Shown: in pieces, positions 5,080 through 60,042 of the stretch
Layout: each line of letters starts with the position of its first letter
Position numbering within the stretch: the stretch's first letter is position 1
Source: a virus
Lineage: Duplodnaviria > Caudoviricetes
Virus record (IMG/VR): IMGVR_UViG_3300014059_000970
Location: 32,001 to 96,000 of that record
Length of the DNA: 64,000 bases
Reading direction: 5' to 3' (one strand)
Translations under genes and position numbers: made by a program
Notes under the pieces: model-generated
What the model was told of the DNA's origin: nothing
Databases searched by the model: none
The model's input: only the letters and a program-made list of their open reading frames with translations

Positions 5080-6130
5080 CTAAACACTCCTTCATTTTAT
5101 TTGCAACTGTTTGATATGAAAATTTATCTAGAATAAATTGTCTAGTGTCGGACTTTTCACGACTTTTATATTCGTGTCGCATTGCGTCTTGTAGGTCAAG
5201 TATATCAATTTCCTGCCATGTTTCATTTCCAGTATATATGTGCGGTAATGGAGGATGCTTACAATCTATTGGAGTTTCAACACTATTTACTCCTATAAGA
5301 TTTGGATAAAAAATTGACATAGGAAATGTATTATTTGTGCAAATCACAGGATTATTAAAATAAAGGGCGTCCATAATAGGCATACAAAATGCCTCTCCAC
5401 GAGAAGGACAAACAAAACAATCACACATCTTATGTATTGAGTATATGTCTTGTTCAGATATGGCGCTTTTAATAATAATTTCTGGAATATATTCCTTTCT
5501 TAATCTGGCTCGCGTTCTCCATTCGTTTATTTCTCCAGCCAAGTCGGTTTCATTGGTCTTAATCAAAAGAGTTACGTCTTCTTGTGGACTAAATTCTCTA
5601 TGAAAAGCCTTAACTAGAGCTAGGATATTCTTACGCTCATTGTTCTCACCAATAAAGTAGAATATGTACTTGCCATCGGCCTCTTGTAAATTAAATGGCT
5701 CTGGTTCAGCAATAGGGGCTTTATATGGAATTGGAACAATGTTTATTTTTACCTTTACTCCACTAGATACAAGACTTTGCTTTTCCATTTCAGAGTTAAC
5801 CCATACTTCATCAAGTAGGTTTATCTTTTGGACCCAGCCGGTCTTTTGAAGATTTCTTGTTTCTGTAAAGAACACGCCTATATTATAGCAGTCGTGACTT
5901 TCTAATAGGTCTGGTAGAACATTTTGAATTAGAACATCTATCTTGTCTAATTTTGTATTTTCGGCAGCTTCTGCTCTTTTTGAAATCTTACCACCGTTGC
6001 CACCCATATATACGGGCCTTGCAGCAACTTTATGGCCGGTCATTAATAGGGCGTCTAGATACCTTCGAGCGGCGATACTCCAACCATCTGTGTCGGGGCC
6101 ACGATATTGTGCTAAAAATAATATATTCAT
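5063..6130 (-). CDS. glycosyltransferase family 4
   Basis: GWSIAARRY, RKNILALVKAF, CDCFVCPSRGEAFCMPIMDAL. Confidence 0.9.
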   Translation of the reverse strand: MNILFLAQYRGPDTDGWSIAARRYLDALLMTGHKVAARPVYMGGNGGKISKRAEAAENTKLDKIDVLIQNVLPDLLESHDCYNIGVFFTETRNLQKTGWVQKINLLDEVWVNSEMEKQSLVSSGVKVKINIVPIPYKAPIAEPEPFNLQEADGKYIFYFIGENNERKNILALVKAFHREFSPQEDVTLLIKTNETDLAGEINEWRTRARLRKEYIPEIIIKSAISEQDIYSIHKMCDCFVCPSRGEAFCMPIMDALYFNNPVICTNNTFPMSIFYPNLIGVNSVETPIDCKHPPLPHIYTGNETWQEIDILDLQDAMRHEYKSREKSDTRQFILDKFSYQTVANKMKECLDVYNK

Positions 6131-6849
6131 TGGTTATACTCTGTTATAATTTTACATATGCGTATTAGTTCGTCTTGACTATATACGCCCTTCATCATAT
6201 TAATCATTTTGTGGACCCACTGGACATTTCCAACTATATATCCTTTTTTATTATTAATTCTATCTAACGAAGCTGTTCTATCTGGTTGTTGGCCAAGTTC
6301 TAATTGAATACCAGATATGGCACATTTGCCGTTTTGTCTATCCCATAATTCTTGCAGATATTCAATGGTAATGTTAAATTCTTTATTTCTAGATACCGCT
6401 TCTCGTTTTAGAGTTGACCAAAACTTACCAGGAATATCTTTAAAACCAGCCCATCTTGGGTTTTTGTTTCCCTTAATATCTGGAATTTTTCTATATAGTG
6501 GTTTTTTACGATTTGTGTAGTCTACATTTCTTTCAATACATTTTGATTCACCACAACATTTAACATCTCCACATAATAATTCATGAGTAGTAACATTTCG
6601 TTTTTTTCCACATTCACATATACATTCGTTTTCATAGCTACCATTTTTCTTAGAATCGAGCCTTTTAACTACAAACAATTTATTTATAGTTTGCCCAGCT
6701 AGTTCTTTAATATTGTTTCGTTTTTCGCTAGAGATACGGCGATTAATGCTTTGTATAGAACAATTGTATATTTTTGAAATTTCTATTGTACTATAACCGT
6801 CTAAATACAATTGGTTAATTTCTTCAATAGGTAAATTTAATTTTTTCAT
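6127..6849 (-). CDS. HNH homing endonuclease with N-terminal HTH
   Basis: KCAISG...TASLDRINNKKGYIVGNVQWVHKMINMMK; CECG motif. Confidence 0.85.
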   Translation of the reverse strand: MKKLNLPIEEINQLYLDGYSTIEISKIYNCSIQSINRRISSEKRNNIKELAGQTINKLFVVKRLDSKKNGSYENECICECGKKRNVTTHELLCGDVKCCGESKCIERNVDYTNRKKPLYRKIPDIKGNKNPRWAGFKDIPGKFWSTLKREAVSRNKEFNITIEYLQELWDRQNGKCAISGIQLELGQQPDRTASLDRINNKKGYIVGNVQWVHKMINMMKGVYSQDELIRICKIITEYNQ

Positions 6850-48044: not shown

Positions 48045-48656
48045 CTAATTTATGTCTTTTTCGTTCTTTTTTCCGCCGGGTGCAAAATAGTATTGTGGTA
48101 AAAGTCGCTTTCTGGTCGCAAATTCCTTTAGGCGAGCCTCGTCTTCGGCGTCTCCATAAATAACACAAGCGTAGTTCTTAAATCTCTTGTGAAATTGTTC
48201 AATTGTAAGATGTAGAGGATATCTATTGTTTTGATGATTATTTAATACCTCTGCCCTATTAGCTAAATCATCATAGCCAACTAGATTAACACAATGCGCA
48301 GTATCAAAAAATATAATAACAGGGCGACCTTCGGCTACTGCTTCTTTAATGAGCTTTACGCAAGCATCCCGACCTGAAGCATCTTTATATTTAACTCCAT
48401 AACTAGTAATCACTCTCCTTAAATCACTAGCCGACGCACCACCCTGACATCTTCTATCTTTTCTTACATCATATAGTTGCTCAATCCCTTGAGTCATAGC
48501 GCAATTATATAGAGAATTCCATACACATGTTCCTCTAGTGTTTAGACTGCGGTATTCCTTTGGAATTGGAGACTGTATATCCCAACAGTCATCCAACTCC
48601 GCAGAATATAAATTACTGACAAATAAAAGTATAAATAGGGAAAGTAAATATCTCAT
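48045..48656 (-). CDS. secreted papain-like (C39-like) peptidase
   Basis: Signal peptide; GTCVWNS, GRPVI..AHCVNLVG, VLNN. Confidence 0.7.
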   Translation of the reverse strand: MRYLLSLFILLFVSNLYSAELDDCWDIQSPIPKEYRSLNTRGTCVWNSLYNCAMTQGIEQLYDVRKDRRCQGGASASDLRRVITSYGVKYKDASGRDACVKLIKEAVAEGRPVIIFFDTAHCVNLVGYDDLANRAEVLNNHQNNRYPLHLTIEQFHKRFKNYACVIYGDAEDEARLKEFATRKRLLPQYYFAPGGKKNEKDIN

Positions 48657-50245
48657 TATTCGCCCTTTTCAAAAATACGAACAACAACTCTGTTCAAAAA
48701 TTCGTTTACAGCGTGCATTGTTTCATCATGTAGGATTGCCTTTGCTACTGGATTTAGAACTGTTTTATGTGCTTCTACCAGTGTCATAGGTGCTTCTTCT
48801 GCAACAAAAGCAACTTGTTCTCCCATTACTGGAGCTACTATTGTTGTTGTTATGCCCAACTTCTTGGCAATAGCTGCGTCAACCCTTCTTGCTACTTCGT
48901 TGTCTAGTTCGTCTGCTCTAGCTCTTAATCTTTCAGCGCTTTCGGCACCAATATATGGAGCTACGGCATTTGCTACTCTTTGTTCAACTTTGTCTAGGGT
49001 AGCTTCGCGCACTTCATCTTTCTTTGCTAGGGCCTTTGTTAAGTAGCCGTTCTTATATAGATAACGAACAACCATTACAACTACGGTAGCTAAACCGCCA
49101 CCGCCTAACCACTTAACTAGATTTTGATAAAAGTCCGCTTCGGCTTGTGCTTCGTCGGCCTTCTTATCTGCGTCTTCTAGTTCTTGGATTACTGGTGGAA
49201 CTTCAACTGGAACATTAAAATCTGGTACGCCGTCAAGATATGGGTTTTCTGATGGATTAATATTTGGAGATGGACTTGGATTAAGAGTCACATCTGGACT
49301 TGGTGTTACATCAGGTGTCTTATCAGGACGAATAATTGGAATTAGCTTTGTTCTGTCCCTGACTGGTTCTGGCACCGTTACCATTGGTACATCAACTACC
49401 TTTGGTGGTAATTGAGCTGGTTGTACAACCTTTGGTTTAGCTGGAACAACAGGACGAACATTGTAATTATACTTACTAGGGGCAAATCTAGCCCTCTTTA
49501 GTCTATTAAAAATAACTTGTTCATAGTTATCTGGTAGTTGAATTACGCTTGGTTCTGAAACTTGACCATTTAGGCTAGCTAAAATTGAATCAACTAGAAC
49601 TGCACCACCATGATTTTCTTCATAGCCCATTGATGTTGGCTTACCGGCAACTCCACCGCCGATTCTCCAAGTAATCATACCCTTTAAATATGTTTCATAT
49701 CCGCTTGGACCCTTTGCTACAATATATAGACCAGAGCCTGATTGTCCGCCTAATGGGGGTGGATAGAATAAAATACGGTCTGATTCTTGGCTAATAATAA
49801 AACCTTCAAAAGCAGAAGGCCAACGAGCCCCTGGACATCCTGCGCTAACTACATAATTACCAACAGCTTCTAGTCCTGCTGGAGCTAATTTAGCAACTCT
49901 TGGTGGATACTTACCGAAGTATCTTTCATCAATAGATAGCAGGGCGTAGTCTGTGCTTGTCCTTTCAACAAACTTTGTCCATACAACGGTTGCAGGTAAT
50001 GGGGTTGTTTTGCGTCCATTCTTAAAGAATTCTAACTGAACATTGTTATTGTTACCAACAACATGTGCATTAGTTAGTATGTAATACATGCCGTTCTCAT
50101 GCTTAATACATGAACCACTTCCATAGTATTGGCCAGCAGTAACTCTACAAGTTGCTTCCAGTATTTGGTTAGCGCCCCATAGTTCTGCTTTAGCAGATAC
50201 AGGAATTAGGAGTAGGCATAAAGTTAAAAAAAGTGACTTAAACAT
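48656..50245 (-). CDS. trypsin-like serine protease with signal peptide, Pro-rich linker and TM segment
   Basis: GSG..ILTNAHV, DYALL, GQSGSG. Confidence 0.85.
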   Translation of the reverse strand: MFKSLFLTLCLLLIPVSAKAELWGANQILEATCRVTAGQYYGSGSCIKHENGMYYILTNAHVVGNNNNVQLEFFKNGRKTTPLPATVVWTKFVERTSTDYALLSIDERYFGKYPPRVAKLAPAGLEAVGNYVVSAGCPGARWPSAFEGFIISQESDRILFYPPPLGGQSGSGLYIVAKGPSGYETYLKGMITWRIGGGVAGKPTSMGYEENHGGAVLVDSILASLNGQVSEPSVIQLPDNYEQVIFNRLKRARFAPSKYNYNVRPVVPAKPKVVQPAQLPPKVVDVPMVTVPEPVRDRTKLIPIIRPDKTPDVTPSPDVTLNPSPSPNINPSENPYLDGVPDFNVPVEVPPVIQELEDADKKADEAQAEADFYQNLVKWLGGGGLATVVVMVVRYLYKNGYLTKALAKKDEVREATLDKVEQRVANAVAPYIGAESAERLRARADELDNEVARRVDAAIAKKLGITTTIVAPVMGEQVAFVAEEAPMTLVEAHKTVLNPVAKAILHDETMHAVNEFLNRVVVRIFEKGE

Positions 50246-53037: not shown

Positions 53038-53787
53038 CTACCACCCCATGTATTTTTTATAAATATCGTCCATTATTACCCACTTTCTTTCTAGTCTAGG
53101 AGTATTCCACCCTAAACAAAATGAGTAAAACTTCATTATGTCTGTTTTATTAGACATTTCTACGCTCACACAAAAATCACTAGCTGATTGCTTATATATT
53201 TTGCATTCACATGGTAATACACTTTTTAGCCATTCCGAACATTTTGGGCTACAAGCAATTCTTGCTCTTTCTGAGTCACAACATCCGTCTCCATCAAATA
53301 GACCTCTTACAAAGTCGCCTAAATATCTATTTGGTATTTTTGGTTCTAAAAAATTATAAGTTTTATTAGGAATAACTCCAAATTTTTCTAAACTTGGTCG
53401 GAGATTATAGTTGTCTATATTTAGATAGCATTTACTATAACTTTCGCTTTCATATGGCTTTACATTATCGACACCAAGTACAGATAAAGAAAACTTTTTA
53501 AGATGATTTATGTCTTTCTCGGCAAGGTGGACACTTAATCTATTTCTATCCGAATAGATACATCCATCAGCAAAAATGAATCCTGCCCAATACGCAGACA
53601 AGGGATTTACCTCATTGAAGAATGAGATTGTTTTCTTGTCTAGTTTTGATTCCAGTTCTTCTTTTAATATTCTATTTTTAGAACGTGTTCCGCCATAAAG
53701 ATTTAATTTACCAGCTTTTGCCCAGCGTCTTATGGTTTTTTCTCCACAATTTGCTATTTGGGCAGCCTCTTTATAATTTATATACAT
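53038..53787 (-). CDS. LAGLIDADG homing endonuclease with N-terminal HTH
   Basis: AYWAGFIFADGC and FVRGLFDGDGC; LERK. Confidence 0.9.
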   Translation of the reverse strand: MYINYKEAAQIANCGEKTIRRWAKAGKLNLYGGTRSKNRILKEELESKLDKKTISFFNEVNPLSAYWAGFIFADGCIYSDRNRLSVHLAEKDINHLKKFSLSVLGVDNVKPYESESYSKCYLNIDNYNLRPSLEKFGVIPNKTYNFLEPKIPNRYLGDFVRGLFDGDGCCDSERARIACSPKCSEWLKSVLPCECKIYKQSASDFCVSVEMSNKTDIMKFYSFCLGWNTPRLERKWVIMDDIYKKYMGW

Positions 53788-55254: not shown

Positions 55255-55923
55255 TCATTCTCCTAAATTGTTGTCCTCTAATAACTTGCGTATAGCTTCT
55301 ATATTAGATGCCATAGCGTATGTTGGAATTTCCTTTCCATTTACATACTTTGCTTGGCACATTATTGCCATGCCAACTACCTCGGTCCCATCCTCATTTA
55401 GAACGGGGGAGCCACTGCGACCGGGAATAATTGGCGGATTAAAATTAAATATATTTGGCTTTTCTTTATTTGATTCAAGAAAGACGCCTTTGAACGCACT
55501 TGGCCACGCCCCGTTTGAGCAGCCGTAGCTCCAAATTGTATATAATTCTTTGCTGTCTTTTGCTAGTTTGAGTGGTTTAAACGGCCTATAGTCACCAAAG
55601 TCTGTTTTAGCCACTTTTACCACAGAAATGTCTGTAGTTGTCCATTCTTCATATAGCCACAAAAGCTTAGTTGCTTTTACGTTTTTGGCCTTACCTCCAT
55701 GAGTTAACATTAAGGTTATTTCTTTATCATCTAGCCCACCAACAAAATGGCCGGCACTTATAAGATAATAATTTTCATCGTCTTCTTTATAGCACCAAGC
55801 CGTTCCAAAAGCCTGGCCATTACTTATTCTGCAAATCGAATCACAGACTTCATTAATCCCGGCGTCAGATAAGTTTGATAAGGAGGCCAGAATTAATAAA
55901 GAGAAAAGAAATTGTTTAATCAT
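55255..55923 (-). CDS. secreted trypsin-like serine protease
   Basis: ISAGHF, TDISVV, GRSGSP; paralog of 48656 (GC..A.WPSAF.G). Confidence 0.85.
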   Translation of the reverse strand: MIKQFLFSLLILASLSNLSDAGINEVCDSICRISNGQAFGTAWCYKEDDENYYLISAGHFVGGLDDKEITLMLTHGGKAKNVKATKLLWLYEEWTTTDISVVKVAKTDFGDYRPFKPLKLAKDSKELYTIWSYGCSNGAWPSAFKGVFLESNKEKPNIFNFNPPIIPGRSGSPVLNEDGTEVVGMAIMCQAKYVNGKEIPTYAMASNIEAIRKLLEDNNLGE

Positions 55924-57777: not shown

Positions 57778-57805
57778 ATTATACACTATTTATTTCGATT
57801 GTCAA
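57778..57805 (-). promoter_or_regulatory. promoter TTGACA-N16-TATAAT
   Basis: Exact hexamers with AGTG extension. Confidence 0.8.
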
Positions 57806-57883
57806 GGGAAAATTTGCGAGATTTTGTAAGTTTTTCCATCGACCACAAAAGGCTTGGCATTAAAAGGGTCTAAATGGAAGAAA

Positions 57884-58087
57884 TTAACGCTCATAAGAGT
57901 CTCTTTTCCAACTAGAAAGTCTATTCTTAATAAGATTGCCCCATTTATCCCGTTCGTGCCTATTTATTGCTTCTAACCAAGTCCAACATTGCTGTTTAAC
58001 GTCTTCAAGTTCATGATATCCATAAATAAAATTTGGAGCTATTTTATCTATAATGGTGCTTAAAATAATCCTGTCTTCTTCTGTCAT
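57884..58087 (-). CDS. small protein resembling sigma-factor region 2 only
   Basis: IA..F.YGY.E.EDVKQQ..W.LEA....NRL..WKRD. Confidence 0.55.
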   Translation of the reverse strand: MTEEDRIILSTIIDKIAPNFIYGYHELEDVKQQCWTWLEAINRHERDKWGNLIKNRLSSWKRDSYER

Positions 58088-58106
58088 TGTATTTTTATGA
58101 AATAAC

Positions 58107-58184
58107 CTAGACACATTTTGGGAGTCGAACCCTTTAAAAAACTTTCACATTTTTTATTTACTATTTAATTGCTGTTCGTGCCTA
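58107..58184 (-). ncRNA. ACAGCA-scaffold RNA copy A (tRNA-fragment-like cargo)
   Basis: TAGGCAC-GA-ACAGCAAT ... GTGTCTAG; contains GGGTTCGACTCCC. Confidence 0.65.
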
Positions 58185-58186
58185 AG

Positions 58187-58259
58187 TGGGGCCTACTGGT
58201 TACGCTCCAGTTCCTCTAGCTTTTCAGACTAGCGCTTCTACTAAGTTAGCTTCGACCCC
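58187..58259 (-). tRNA. tRNA-Phe(GAA)
   Basis: CTAGT-CTGAAAA-GCTAG; non-canonical T loop AGCGTAA. Confidence 0.8.
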
Positions 58260-58263
58260 ATAA

Positions 58264-58376
58264 CTAGATACATTTTAAGGGTTTTACCATTAAACTACAC
58301 CACCATTAGGCGGTGACAGGACTCGAACCTGCGTCACTACATTAAAAGTGTAATTTTAAACTGCTGTTAGTATCTA
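58264..58376 (-). ncRNA. ACAGCA-scaffold RNA copy B carrying a circularly permuted tRNA-Lys(UUU)
   Basis: TAGATAC-TA-ACAGCAGT ... GTATCTAG enclosing anticodon arm, T arm, loop-closed acceptor stem and D arm. Confidence 0.75.
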
Positions 58377-58378
58377 AG

Positions 58379-58451
58379 CGGCTATTACGAGGATTGCACT
58401 CGCCACGGTCTGCTTGACGGGCAGATATCACCTCTAGGTGAACTAATAGCC
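58379..58451 (-). tRNA. tRNA-Asp(GUC), atypical D and T loops
   Basis: TCTGC-CCGTCAA-GCAGA; G73. Confidence 0.75.
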
Positions 58452-58455
58452 AAAA

Positions 58456-58544
58456 CTAGATAGTAGTGCCCTTTAGGTGGGCCTCCGCACCTTTGCCTTT
58501 CGGCGTTACTACAACGTATTATGGTTGATTGCTGTAACTATCTA
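58456..58544 (-). ncRNA. ACAGCA-scaffold RNA copy C (structured non-tRNA cargo)
   Basis: TAGATAG-TT-ACAGCAAT ... CTATCTAG; internal GCC-GAAA-GGC. Confidence 0.65.
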
Positions 58545-58547
58545 AAG

Positions 58548-58632
58548 TCGGTCGTAGAAGAATTGAACTACTTGCCGCCACCACACATATTAATGGCAAT
58601 TGTTTTACAGACAACCGTGTGGATTACGACCG
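58548..58632 (-). tRNA. tRNA-Tyr(GUA) lacking a D-arm
   Basis: CGGTCGT/ACGACCG-A; GTTGT-CTGTAAA-ACAAT; long variable arm. Confidence 0.7.
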
Positions 58633-58634
58633 AT

Positions 58635-58704
58635 TATAATTGTATCACGCCAGTCGGTCTATTTCTAGGGAAACTGGAATAACTTTTATCGACATACAAT
58701 TATA
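58635..58704 (-). ncRNA. unassigned structured RNA
   Basis: TATAATTGTAT/ATACAATTATA closing stem; CCAGT/ACTGG inner stem. Confidence 0.55.
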
Positions 58705-58705
58705 G

Positions 58706-58789
58706 CAGTTGGGAAGAGAGTCGAACTCTTCGGGCTTGTTACACCTGATTGTTTTCAAAACAATTTGACACGCCAATGTCCGCCCAACT
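58706..58789 (-). tRNA. tRNA-Ser(UGA)
   Basis: ATTGT-TTTGAAA-ACAAT; long variable arm; G73. Confidence 0.8.
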
Positions 58790-58942
58790 ATGTTTTACTA
58801 GAATATCTCCGCGCTTAACCTCTGTATCTTTTGGCAATAATACGCCAATACGGTCGCCTGGACCAATAGCTCTATTAGTCATACAAAGTTCTACACCAAG
58901 AACTCTAACAATTTCATTTTTCACGGGTTTTCTTTTCTCCAA
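58739..58942 (-). CDS. hypothetical protein (stop inside tRNA-Ser)
   Basis: 67 aa ORF; EVKRGDIL OB-like ending. Confidence 0.45.
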   Translation of the reverse strand: MEKRKPVKNEIVRVLGVELCMTNRAIGPGDRIGVLLPKDTEVKRGDILVKHSWADIGVSNCFENNQV

Positions 58943-59100
58943 GTCTTTTCAAACTCAGTTTGTACATTTTCTATCGAAAGTTCTAATAGTGTCTTTTCTA
59001 TTATCGCCTTACTCTCAAGAATCTCTTTTTGCAATTGTCTGATATGTCTTCTATGGTATAGCATACAATCAATTTTGATTCTTATTTCGTAATCTTTCAT
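58921..59100 (-). CDS. hypothetical protein
   Basis: MKDYEIR... directly after tRNA-Lys. Confidence 0.45.
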   Translation of the reverse strand: MKDYEIRIKIDCMLYHRRHIRQLQKEILESKAIIEKTLLELSIENVQTEFEKTWRKENP

Positions 59101-59446: not shown

Positions 59447-59517
59447 AGTTGCAAAAAGGAATCGAACCCAATCTTTCAGCTTTGAGGGCTGACGTGCTTC
59501 CGTTACACTATCGCAAC
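59447..59517 (-). tRNA. tRNA with UCA anticodon (possible opal suppressor)
   Basis: TCAGC-CCTCAAA-GCTGA; weak T stem; C33. Confidence 0.55.
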
Positions 59518-59914: not shown

Positions 59915-60007
59915 TGGTCAGGATGCTGGAATTGAACCAGACAATTACGTGTGACGAGCCTAAGCTCAGCATCCATTGGATTTCAGGTCCGCCGGTCACT
60001 CATCCTG
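59915..60007 (-). ncRNA. tRNA-like RNA: acceptor stem, T arm and encoded CCA with a non-tRNA lower half
   Basis: CAGGATG/CATCCTG-ACCA; CTGG-TTCAATT-CCAG; GTGAC/GTCAC multibranch. Confidence 0.65.
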
Positions 60008-60014
60008 TAAGTCT

Positions 60015-60042
60015 ATTATACACTATTTAAAACGATTGTCAA
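60015..60042 (-). promoter_or_regulatory. promoter TTGACA-N16-TATAAT
   Basis: Exact hexamers heading the main RNA array. Confidence 0.85.

Follow-up and report, generated by a model that had tools for sequence, protein, structure and literature searches.

Handle RNAs with exchangeable cargo in a phage tRNA cluster, probable partners of a DUF2828 protein with a predicted Ro60 fold

Analysis of a 64,000-nucleotide stretch of phage DNA, hereafter the window (bases 32001-96000 of the 122.8-kb IMG/VR phage record IMGVR_UViG_3300014059_000970, which is 81% complete), concerned three short minus-strand elements, A, B and C, that lie among tRNA genes and carry different inserts (cargo) on a shared terminal structure, the handle. 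These elements are probably stable small RNAs of a large family that is absent from Rfam and from the papers searched, and RNA partners of a DUF2828+DUF7788 protein with a predicted Ro60 fold that is encoded in the same phage; handle RNAs and protein together most likely form a divergent particle of the Ro60/Y-RNA type. Conservation and covariation of the handle are shown by comparative data. Searches from gene to RNA and from RNA to gene both find the two together, and nearly all handles share the strand of the DUF2828 gene, lying either beside it or in a tRNA cluster. A preliminary description of the region had proposed a candidate new RNA system in which a conserved handle presents swappable, often tRNA-mimicking cargo. 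This arrangement recurs at hundreds of loci with strong covariation and strand specificity, but the system is not wholly new: because the partner gene in the same phage has a close homologue with a predicted Ro60 fold, the elements are best read as a divergent Ro60/Y-RNA branch. Y RNAs had been named there as the nearest known kind and then set aside.

Elements A, B and C have a common layout consisting of a 7-bp closing stem, 2 nucleotides (nt), the motif ACAGCA(A/G)U, variable cargo, the 3' arm of the stem and an unpaired G. On the minus strand the order is tRNA-Tyr-like gene, C, tRNA-Asp-like gene, B, tRNA-Phe, A, and then a small open reading frame (ORF; ATG at 58087). Element A has the stem UAGGCAC/GUGUCUA, the spacer GA, the core ACAGCAAU and the 3' G, and its cargo folds into an A/U hairpin and a T-arm-like hairpin, GGG-UUCGACU-CCC. 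In element B the stem is UAGAUAC/GUAUCUA, the spacer UA and the core ACAGCAGU. Its cargo folds into four parts in a YrlA-like, permuted-tRNA arrangement: first a hairpin whose loop, CUUUUAA, resembles an anticodon loop of the Lys-UUU type, next a T arm, then an acceptor stem of 7 bp closed by a loop, and last a D arm. Element C, with the stem UAGAUAG/CUAUCUA, the spacer UU and again the core ACAGCAAU, holds G+C-rich, non-tRNA-like cargo with a GCC-GAAA-GGC hairpin of the GNRA type. Among the three stems, pairs 5 and 7 are altered on both sides and pair 4 changes from G.U to A-U. The stem sequences, their compensatory changes and the differences in cargo (T loop in A, permuted tRNA-Lys type in B, GNRA in C) are thus as first described, the cargo being reproduced by folding, while the gaps to the preceding discriminator, given there as 3-4 nt, are in fact 2, 2 and 4 nt. 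Across the 64 kb, only A, B and C match the pattern TAGRYASNNACAGCA perfectly, once each, and all three agree exactly with the definition of the handle family (7-bp stem, 2-nt spacer, (A)CAGCAA, cargo, 3' arm and G).

Regarding described RNA families, Rfam has no family for the handle, and of the three elements only B, through its cargo, gave a match to YrlA (RF02553), at 34.3 bits (E 2e-5; gathering score 69 bits) via the T arm, closed acceptor and D arm; A and C had no YrlA match at E<=10. The Rfam tRNA model (RF00005, gathering score 29 bits) matched B only partially, at 25.6 bits and with the D arm skipped, and ARAGORN called no tRNA within A, B or C. The motif GNCGAA(N0-1)G near the 5' end of YrlA, a proposed Ro60 contact (Chen et al., 2014; PMC4201824), is absent from A-C, as had been noted at the outset, and ACAGCA(A/G)U is found there instead. 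A blastn search of the region against 50,697 phage records returned zero matches. When relatives were sought via a nearby DNA ligase, none was found in viral contigs, and the cultured-phage matches all had less than 35% identity; the phage is therefore without a close cultured relative.

A pattern search of the whole genome revealed four further units at 121.27-121.52 kb, on the same strand as A-C. They begin 5 nt past the stop codon of an ORF with Pfam matches to DUF2828 (3.5e-25) and DUF7788 (2e-40) and a faint vWA signal, the N-terminus of which is cut by the contig end. The ORF and its units are outside the window, 31 kb from A-C, which agrees with the earlier statement that the window holds no partner protein. 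The DUF2828+DUF7788 family is very large (>5,000 homologues scored; full length about 475 amino acids), and an ESM Atlas look-up returned DUF2828 clusters from viruses and bacteria only. No match to TROVE, RtcB, a CCA-adding enzyme or an Rnl2-type ligase was detected in the 122.8-kb record. Rnl1-type ligase and the shoulder domain of the major vault protein (MVP) were not matched either, negatives that say little since no control genome matched them.

As the gene copy in this phage is N-terminally truncated at the contig end, a full-length homologue 96% identical to the phage protein was modelled with AlphaFold from a 30-sequence alignment (pLDDT 86, pTM 0.83). The protein is predicted to have a Ro60 fold: the model shows a helical-repeat ring followed by a vWA domain with MIDAS-type residues, D290, S292, S294 and D387, that are invariant in the alignment. 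The protein also has an invariant segment, RD(I/V)RGGxGE. The best 13 matches of the model in the PDB by Foldseek were all Ro60 proteins (E 1e-6 to 2e-4), including those of Xenopus, human, Deinococcus (Rsr) and Thermus phage phiLo. With VIA-align the model was aligned to Ro60 (2i91_A) over 399 residues (model residues 8-457; Z 18.9), covering the ring and the vWA domain; the top ten matches were all Ro60, and the next, at Z 8.6, covered a vWA domain alone.

The preliminary description had put forward a covariance search of phage genomes and a gene-neighbourhood test as checks besides Rfam, and the comparative data show a real family that is tied to the DUF2828 gene. In 80 viral loci encoding DUF2828 homologues, ACAGCA is enriched on the strand of the gene just upstream and downstream of it. 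A perfect 7-bp Watson-Crick clamp is present at 104 of the 208 plus-strand ACAGCA sites near the gene, compared with 0/43 on the other strand and 0-1 per set for four permuted motifs (0-2% in these controls). A covariance model, R1, was trained on 40 short units taken from a strict scan that demanded perfect stems, with the clamp as its sole structure; with E<=0.01 as the cut-off, 59 of the 80 loci yielded 128 matches, none of them on the strand opposite the gene. The stem is 99.4% paired in the R1 alignment; both-sided changes affect 242 cells, and 26 extra pair types occur. These values were reached by 0/500 shuffles, and pairing in slid controls is 29-43%. Every one of the 128 matches has CAGC and the 3' G. 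The clamp count near the gene, the R1 search and the covariation on R1 hits are fairer tests than pairing in the training set. In the phage studied here R1 matched A at 36.2 bits (E 1e-5), the four distal units at 19-47 bits and B weakly and partially (13.8 bits), the low score of B being due to its long cargo.

The consensus of 430 distinct units is W-A-G-R-C-N-C, NN, ACAGCAA and a G-poor linker, then, after the variable part, an A-rich stretch and G-N-G-Y-C-U-W-G, and there are up to six copies per locus, each with different structured cargo. Bacterial loci and loci from metagenome-assembled genomes (MAGs; n=80 together) have 203 units on the strand of the gene and 8 on the opposite strand, with at least one unit in 68/80. 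In the reverse direction, viral contigs scanned with a pattern based on the RNA only yielded at least 113 loci; 48 records were searched with the protein profile and 38 of them encode the protein, including all 16 that are at least 90% complete, while the ten without it are fragments (3-70% complete). Clustering of neighbouring genes revealed no universal protein partner besides the DUF2828 gene.

Some loci of the family have additional features near the DUF2828 gene. In three viral records (G019, G034 and G039, from loci L113, L131 and L137) the gene matches in two pieces, 55 to about 820 bp apart, which suggests an inserted element, an intron, an intein or a split gene. A 40.9-kb contig binned as Candidatus Saccharibacteria (L204, CAZEIK010000006.1) carries the homologue that is closest among the collected genomes (58% identity), and five handle RNAs follow the gene in a row; this binning may hint at the host of related phages or may reflect a mis-binned phage contig. 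Directly downstream of the DUF2828 gene and on the same strand, an MVP-like ORF of about 828 amino acids was detected in locus L072 (5830-8316, plus strand; Pfam MVP_shoulder 1.8e-19, Vault_3 9.4e-8) and in five other viral loci. As TROVE proteins include the vault component TEP1, the combination of a Ro-fold protein, an MVP-like protein and small RNAs recalls vault particles.

The units fall into two length classes, of about 50-70 nt and of 90-130 nt. Many of the longer ones have a YrlA-like order, with YrlA scores of 28-50 bits that are below threshold, and others enclose an ordinary tRNA (67.5 bits in locus L010). Hairpin loops of 7 nt account for 190 of 575 loops in the 430 distinct units, compared with 36 of 435 after shuffling of the cargo; 70 loops are T-loop-like (0 after shuffling) and 67 are anticodon-loop-like (2 after shuffling), the latter having mostly UUU (19) or GUU (11) at the anticodon positions, i.e., Lys-UUU and Asn-GUU types. 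The first hairpin loop of B, CUUUUAA, is of the commonest type. Use of ARAGORN on doubled cargo to find permuted complete tRNAs was uninformative, B itself remaining uncalled. Regarding genomic context, 450 of the 454 tRNAs in family loci are on the strand of the gene, and units are situated 0-6 nt past a tRNA or 5-10 nt ahead of one, as in the window; no particular isotype is enriched among the flanking tRNAs. Placement beside tRNAs, noted initially for A-C, thus recurs in other loci and fits the release by tRNA processing that had been proposed for them.

Homologues of the protein are present in 701 of 50,697 cultured phage records, including those of Felix O1-like coliphages, Listeria, Staphylococcus, Enterococcus, Campylobacter and Vibrio phages and cluster-L mycobacteriophages, and in hundreds of bacterial and MAG contigs. 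The cultured-phage homologues are annotated as hypothetical, DUF2828, vWA or "Ro-like RNA binding protein". Mycobacteriophage Crossroads has three units in an unannotated 375-nt gap after gene 55. In Bas63 (Escherichia phage JohannRWettstein) the homologue is gp130 (bas63_0130; tblastn E 9e-64 to the query), encoded upstream of a tRNA cluster in which four handle RNAs were found (Table 1), all unannotated and lying between annotated tRNAs or beneath small opposite-strand ORF calls; one of these ORFs, bas63_0137, which covers the longest unit, is probably spurious. In the numbering of record MZ501086 the four are at about 82072-82139, 82239-82297, 82694-82762 and 82781-82907. Their cores are GCAGCAA, ACAGCAA, UCAGCAA and ACAGCAA, and since the first base varies, the invariant part is CAGCAA only. 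A Ro60-like fold of gp130 has been reported in the PhageMaP preprint (10.1101/2024.10.10.617714), together with the finding that deletion of g130 sensitises the phage to the Ppl defence; regarding RNA partners, the authors only speculated that Y RNAs might be hidden behind some of the tRNA annotations. The literature searched, which excluded most subscription journals, contained no paper on RNA partners of DUF2828/DUF7788 proteins.

Several observations weigh against a Ro60-type particle that includes A-C. We infer from sequence the discrete transcripts, the RNA ends and the binding by the protein. The pairing statistic of the R1 training set partly follows from selection, because perfect stems were required, and 21 of the 80 viral loci are without an R1 match within 4 kb. 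Element C was missed by R1 at E<=10, so its membership of the family rests on its handle sequence and position, and since 31 kb separate A-C from the gene, the grounds for linking them to it are the common handle and co-occurrence across the family. The protein has no match to Pfam TROVE (PF05731), and phmmer and profile searches against PDB sequences did not retrieve Ro60; its relation to Ro60 is by predicted fold only, and the prediction was made for the 96%-identical homologue and not for the copy of this phage.

Regarding a possible mechanism, the handle RNAs would be transcribed within the tRNA operon, with one end generated by RNase P cutting at the 5' end of the next tRNA and the other freed by 3' processing of the preceding tRNA. 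Such release can reasonably be supposed because units abut tRNAs, a candidate promoter heads the cluster and no terminator-like site lies between. The product would be a 7-bp clamp with a short 3' tail beginning with the invariant G. A Ro60-like ring might then grip the clamp and the single-stranded CAGCAA as Ro60 grips the conserved stem of Y RNAs, leaving the variable cargo (a tRNA body, whole or permuted, a T arm, or a hairpin resembling an anticodon arm, mostly of the Lys-UUU or Asn-GUU type) displayed as the working end, which could tether the ring to host factors that recognise tRNAs or act as bait for them. A counter-defence role of the handle system is plausible, and the cargo statistics and the preprint on Bas63 gp130 are compatible with RNAs that act as decoys or adaptors against defences targeting tRNAs. 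Since no RNA ligase, RtcB or CCA-adding enzyme was detected in the 122.8 kb, the system is unlikely to be a repair platform complete in itself; the cargo agrees better with bait or tether functions directed at host factors that recognise tRNAs. A modular display, in which the handle loads the ring while the cargo (mimics of Lys-UUU or Asn-GUU anticodon arms, T arms, whole or permuted tRNAs) baits anticodon nucleases or other tRNA-directed defences or recruits host tRNA enzymes, and in which the pairing of RNA and protein may also be a relative of the amoebal Class I RNAs, is a tentative proposal that we regard as possible and somewhat doubtful.

Other explanations of the elements are less probable than a particle with the DUF2828 protein. 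The handles could be cis-acting parts of longer transcripts, either autoregulatory DUF2828 sites in its own mRNA or processing or insulator hairpins of tRNA operons, in keeping with the position of most copies in the untranslated flanks of the DUF2828 gene and of some copies directly against tRNAs. The copies in the window, however, are 31 kb from the gene and inside a tRNA operon, and a locus may have up to six copies with distinct structured cargo, including whole tRNA bodies, which a simple operator or cleavage signal would not need. Units are also present in 32 of 82 loci with no tRNA within 4 kb and are therefore not general tRNA-operon punctuation, and in size and architecture they match two kinds of abundant free RNA, Y RNAs and the Class I RNAs of Dictyostelium; a cis-acting role is accordingly judged improbable.

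It is more improbable still that A-C are ordinary Y RNAs of the YrlA/YrlB type that use a canonical Ro60 (Rsr) supplied by the host or encoded in the missing part of the phage. The YrlA match of B (E 2e-5), with its T arm, closed acceptor and D arm following one another as in YrlA, and the incompleteness of the record speak for this possibility, but the match reaches half of the gathering score, such a match is missing from A and C, GNCGAA is absent with CAGCAA invariant in its place, no TROVE gene was detected in the 122.8 kb, and handle and DUF2828 gene occur together in all 16 near-complete genomes. The elements might, finally, be decayed or rearranged tRNA genes (pseudogenes or permuted or split remnants) with chance similarity of their flanks, given their position among tRNAs, the presence of every tRNA arm in B and the aberrant structure of the neighbouring tRNAs. 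This explanation is contradicted by the comparative data and has next to no credibility: the handle is kept, strand-specifically and with compensatory changes, across very divergent phages and bacteria, and most cargo in the family is too short to be the remnant of a tRNA.

Table 1. Handle RNAs and associated features (positions in the window unless a locus is given).
Feature	Position	Strand	Basis	Remarks
Element A, handle RNA	58107-58184	-	Sequence, fold, pattern match, R1	
Element B, handle RNA	58263-58376	-	Sequence, fold, Rfam YrlA sub-threshold match	
Element C, handle RNA	58457-58544	-	Sequence, fold, exact pattern match	
tRNA-Phe(GAA)	58187-58259	-	Rfam tRNA, 37.6 bits	Odd T loop AGCGUAA; ends 2 nt before A
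tRNA-Asp(GUC)-like gene	58379-58451	-	Fold	Starts 5 nt past the 3' arm of C; ends 2 nt before B
tRNA-Tyr(GUA)-like gene	~58549-58632	-	Sequence and fold	Ends 4 nt before C
Sigma-70-type consensus (candidate promoter)	60015-60042	-	Consensus scan, 12/12 matches	TTGACA, 16 nt, TATAAT
Four Bas63 handle RNAs	L089 (MZ501086.1 76361-85656): 5712-5779, 5879-5937, 6334-6402, 6421-6547	+		tRNA cluster downstream of gp130

The alternation of the elements with tRNA genes, part of the first account of the region, stands as regards order; the genes themselves are aberrant: ARAGORN called 0/3 of the flanking tRNAs (Tyr, Asp, Phe) and the Rfam tRNA model detected Phe alone, missing the Tyr-like and Asp-like genes. 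According to its fold, the Tyr-like gene is missing a normal D arm and has a long variable region, while the Asp-like gene forms a cloverleaf in which the D stem has 5 bp, the D loop has 4 nt and the T loop, UGCAAUC, is odd. All three are non-canonical and are either working tRNAs or further mimics. The sigma-70-type match (Table 1) heads the minus-strand tRNA cluster, and no terminator-like site was detected on that strand from there to 58100; as a consensus match, it is a candidate promoter for a transcript with the tRNAs and A-C.

Elsewhere in the tRNA-rich region, ARAGORN called a tRNA with the anticodon UCA (labelled SeC), and the phage has a tRNA-Trp(CCA) too (minus-strand positions of interest, 59447-59517 and 59915-60007). 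Homing-endonuclease-like and peptidase ORFs were also found there (53038-53787, 55255-55923 and 48656-50245, all on the minus strand): an ORF resembling LAGLIDADG/helix-turn-helix homing endonucleases adjoins two tRNA-Gly genes, and two trypsin-like peptidase ORFs are close by.

What is new concerns the probable RNA partners, which are unannotated, absent from Rfam and predictable from sequence. Animals, about 5% of bacteria and a few phages are known to have Ro60/Y-RNA particles, and the handle system would be a second and much larger phage branch. The handle RNAs offer a concrete entry to how Bas63 gp130 counters a defence system, and they account for unassigned gaps in phage tRNA clusters and for some of the spurious small ORF calls made there. 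They also provide a natural set of tRNA-mimic modules whose targets can be sought, and a possible link to the unexplained Class I RNAs of Dictyostelium and, via the MVP-like neighbours in some phages, to vault particles.

Comparison with known systems was made with the bacterial and mycobacteriophage YrlA/YrlB RNAs (RF02553; PMC4201824) and with the Ro60 of Thermus phage phiLo and its Yrl1/Yrl2 RNAs (PMC12135203). As in these, there is a ring-plus-vWA protein, here by predicted fold, with several small same-strand RNAs beside its gene; the 5' and 3' ends of the RNAs pair into a stem that adjoins a conserved, largely unpaired motif, the rest being variable, and each genome encodes one or more RNAs in which a T arm, a closed acceptor and a D arm follow one another, while shorter partners are without this module. 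Within the window the YrlA domain order (T arm, loop-closed acceptor, D arm) is found in B, whereas A has only a T-arm-like hairpin and C none of it. YrlA RNAs are expected on the strand of a Ro60 orthologue and no more than about 4 kb from it; A-C are 31 kb off on the same strand, and their four sister copies abut the gene, which is not of the TROVE type. Canonical phage Ro60 systems have TROVE proteins and a CGAA-type motif (PMC4201824; PMC12135203), whereas the DUF2828 protein is detected neither by Pfam TROVE nor by sequence search against Ro60 in the PDB, and the handle motif, (A)CAGCAA after a 7-bp clamp, takes the place of GNCGAA(N)G or CGAA. The Rfam YrlA scores are sub-threshold and come from tRNA-like cargo only, and this phage, in contrast to the systems compared, has no RtcB or RNA ligase. 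A further difference is that many handle copies are embedded in tRNA operons and that their cargo includes whole tRNAs of ordinary order and isolated anticodon-like hairpins. Phage T4 also has small stable RNAs in its tRNA cluster, species 1 and 2 (rnaC, rnaD), which are co-transcribed and co-processed with the tRNAs; T4 is not among the phages listed as carrying the DUF2828 protein. Bas63 gp130 belongs to the same protein family as the protein of this phage and is likewise encoded upstream of a tRNA cluster, and its handle RNAs were found in the present analysis.

The Class I RNAs of dictyostelid amoebae (RF01414; PMC7919456) are 42-65 nt long, with a 6-bp terminal stem, a motif ending in ACAGCAA and a variable rest, and have been searched for with the pattern GTTGRCCTTACAGCAA ... 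GTCAACTG (PMC5054030). They differ from the handle RNAs in being eukaryotic and having their own promoter element, in the length of the stem (6 bp compared with 7 bp) and, by about 2 nt, in the spacing to ACAGCAA, and their known direct binder is the RRM protein Rnp1A, with no link to DUF2828 reported. The RF01414 model had no match on 57800-59000 at E<=10, nor at E<=1 on five loci with short units. Both kinds of RNA nevertheless have an unpaired motif ending in ACAGCAA right after the 5' arm and a variable remainder, start with (A)AG, end with CU and then G, and are encoded by many gene copies. The Class I architecture (terminal stem, motif ending in ACAGCAA, about 60 nt, variable rest) is also that of the handle RNAs, a striking resemblance drawn from the published descriptions.

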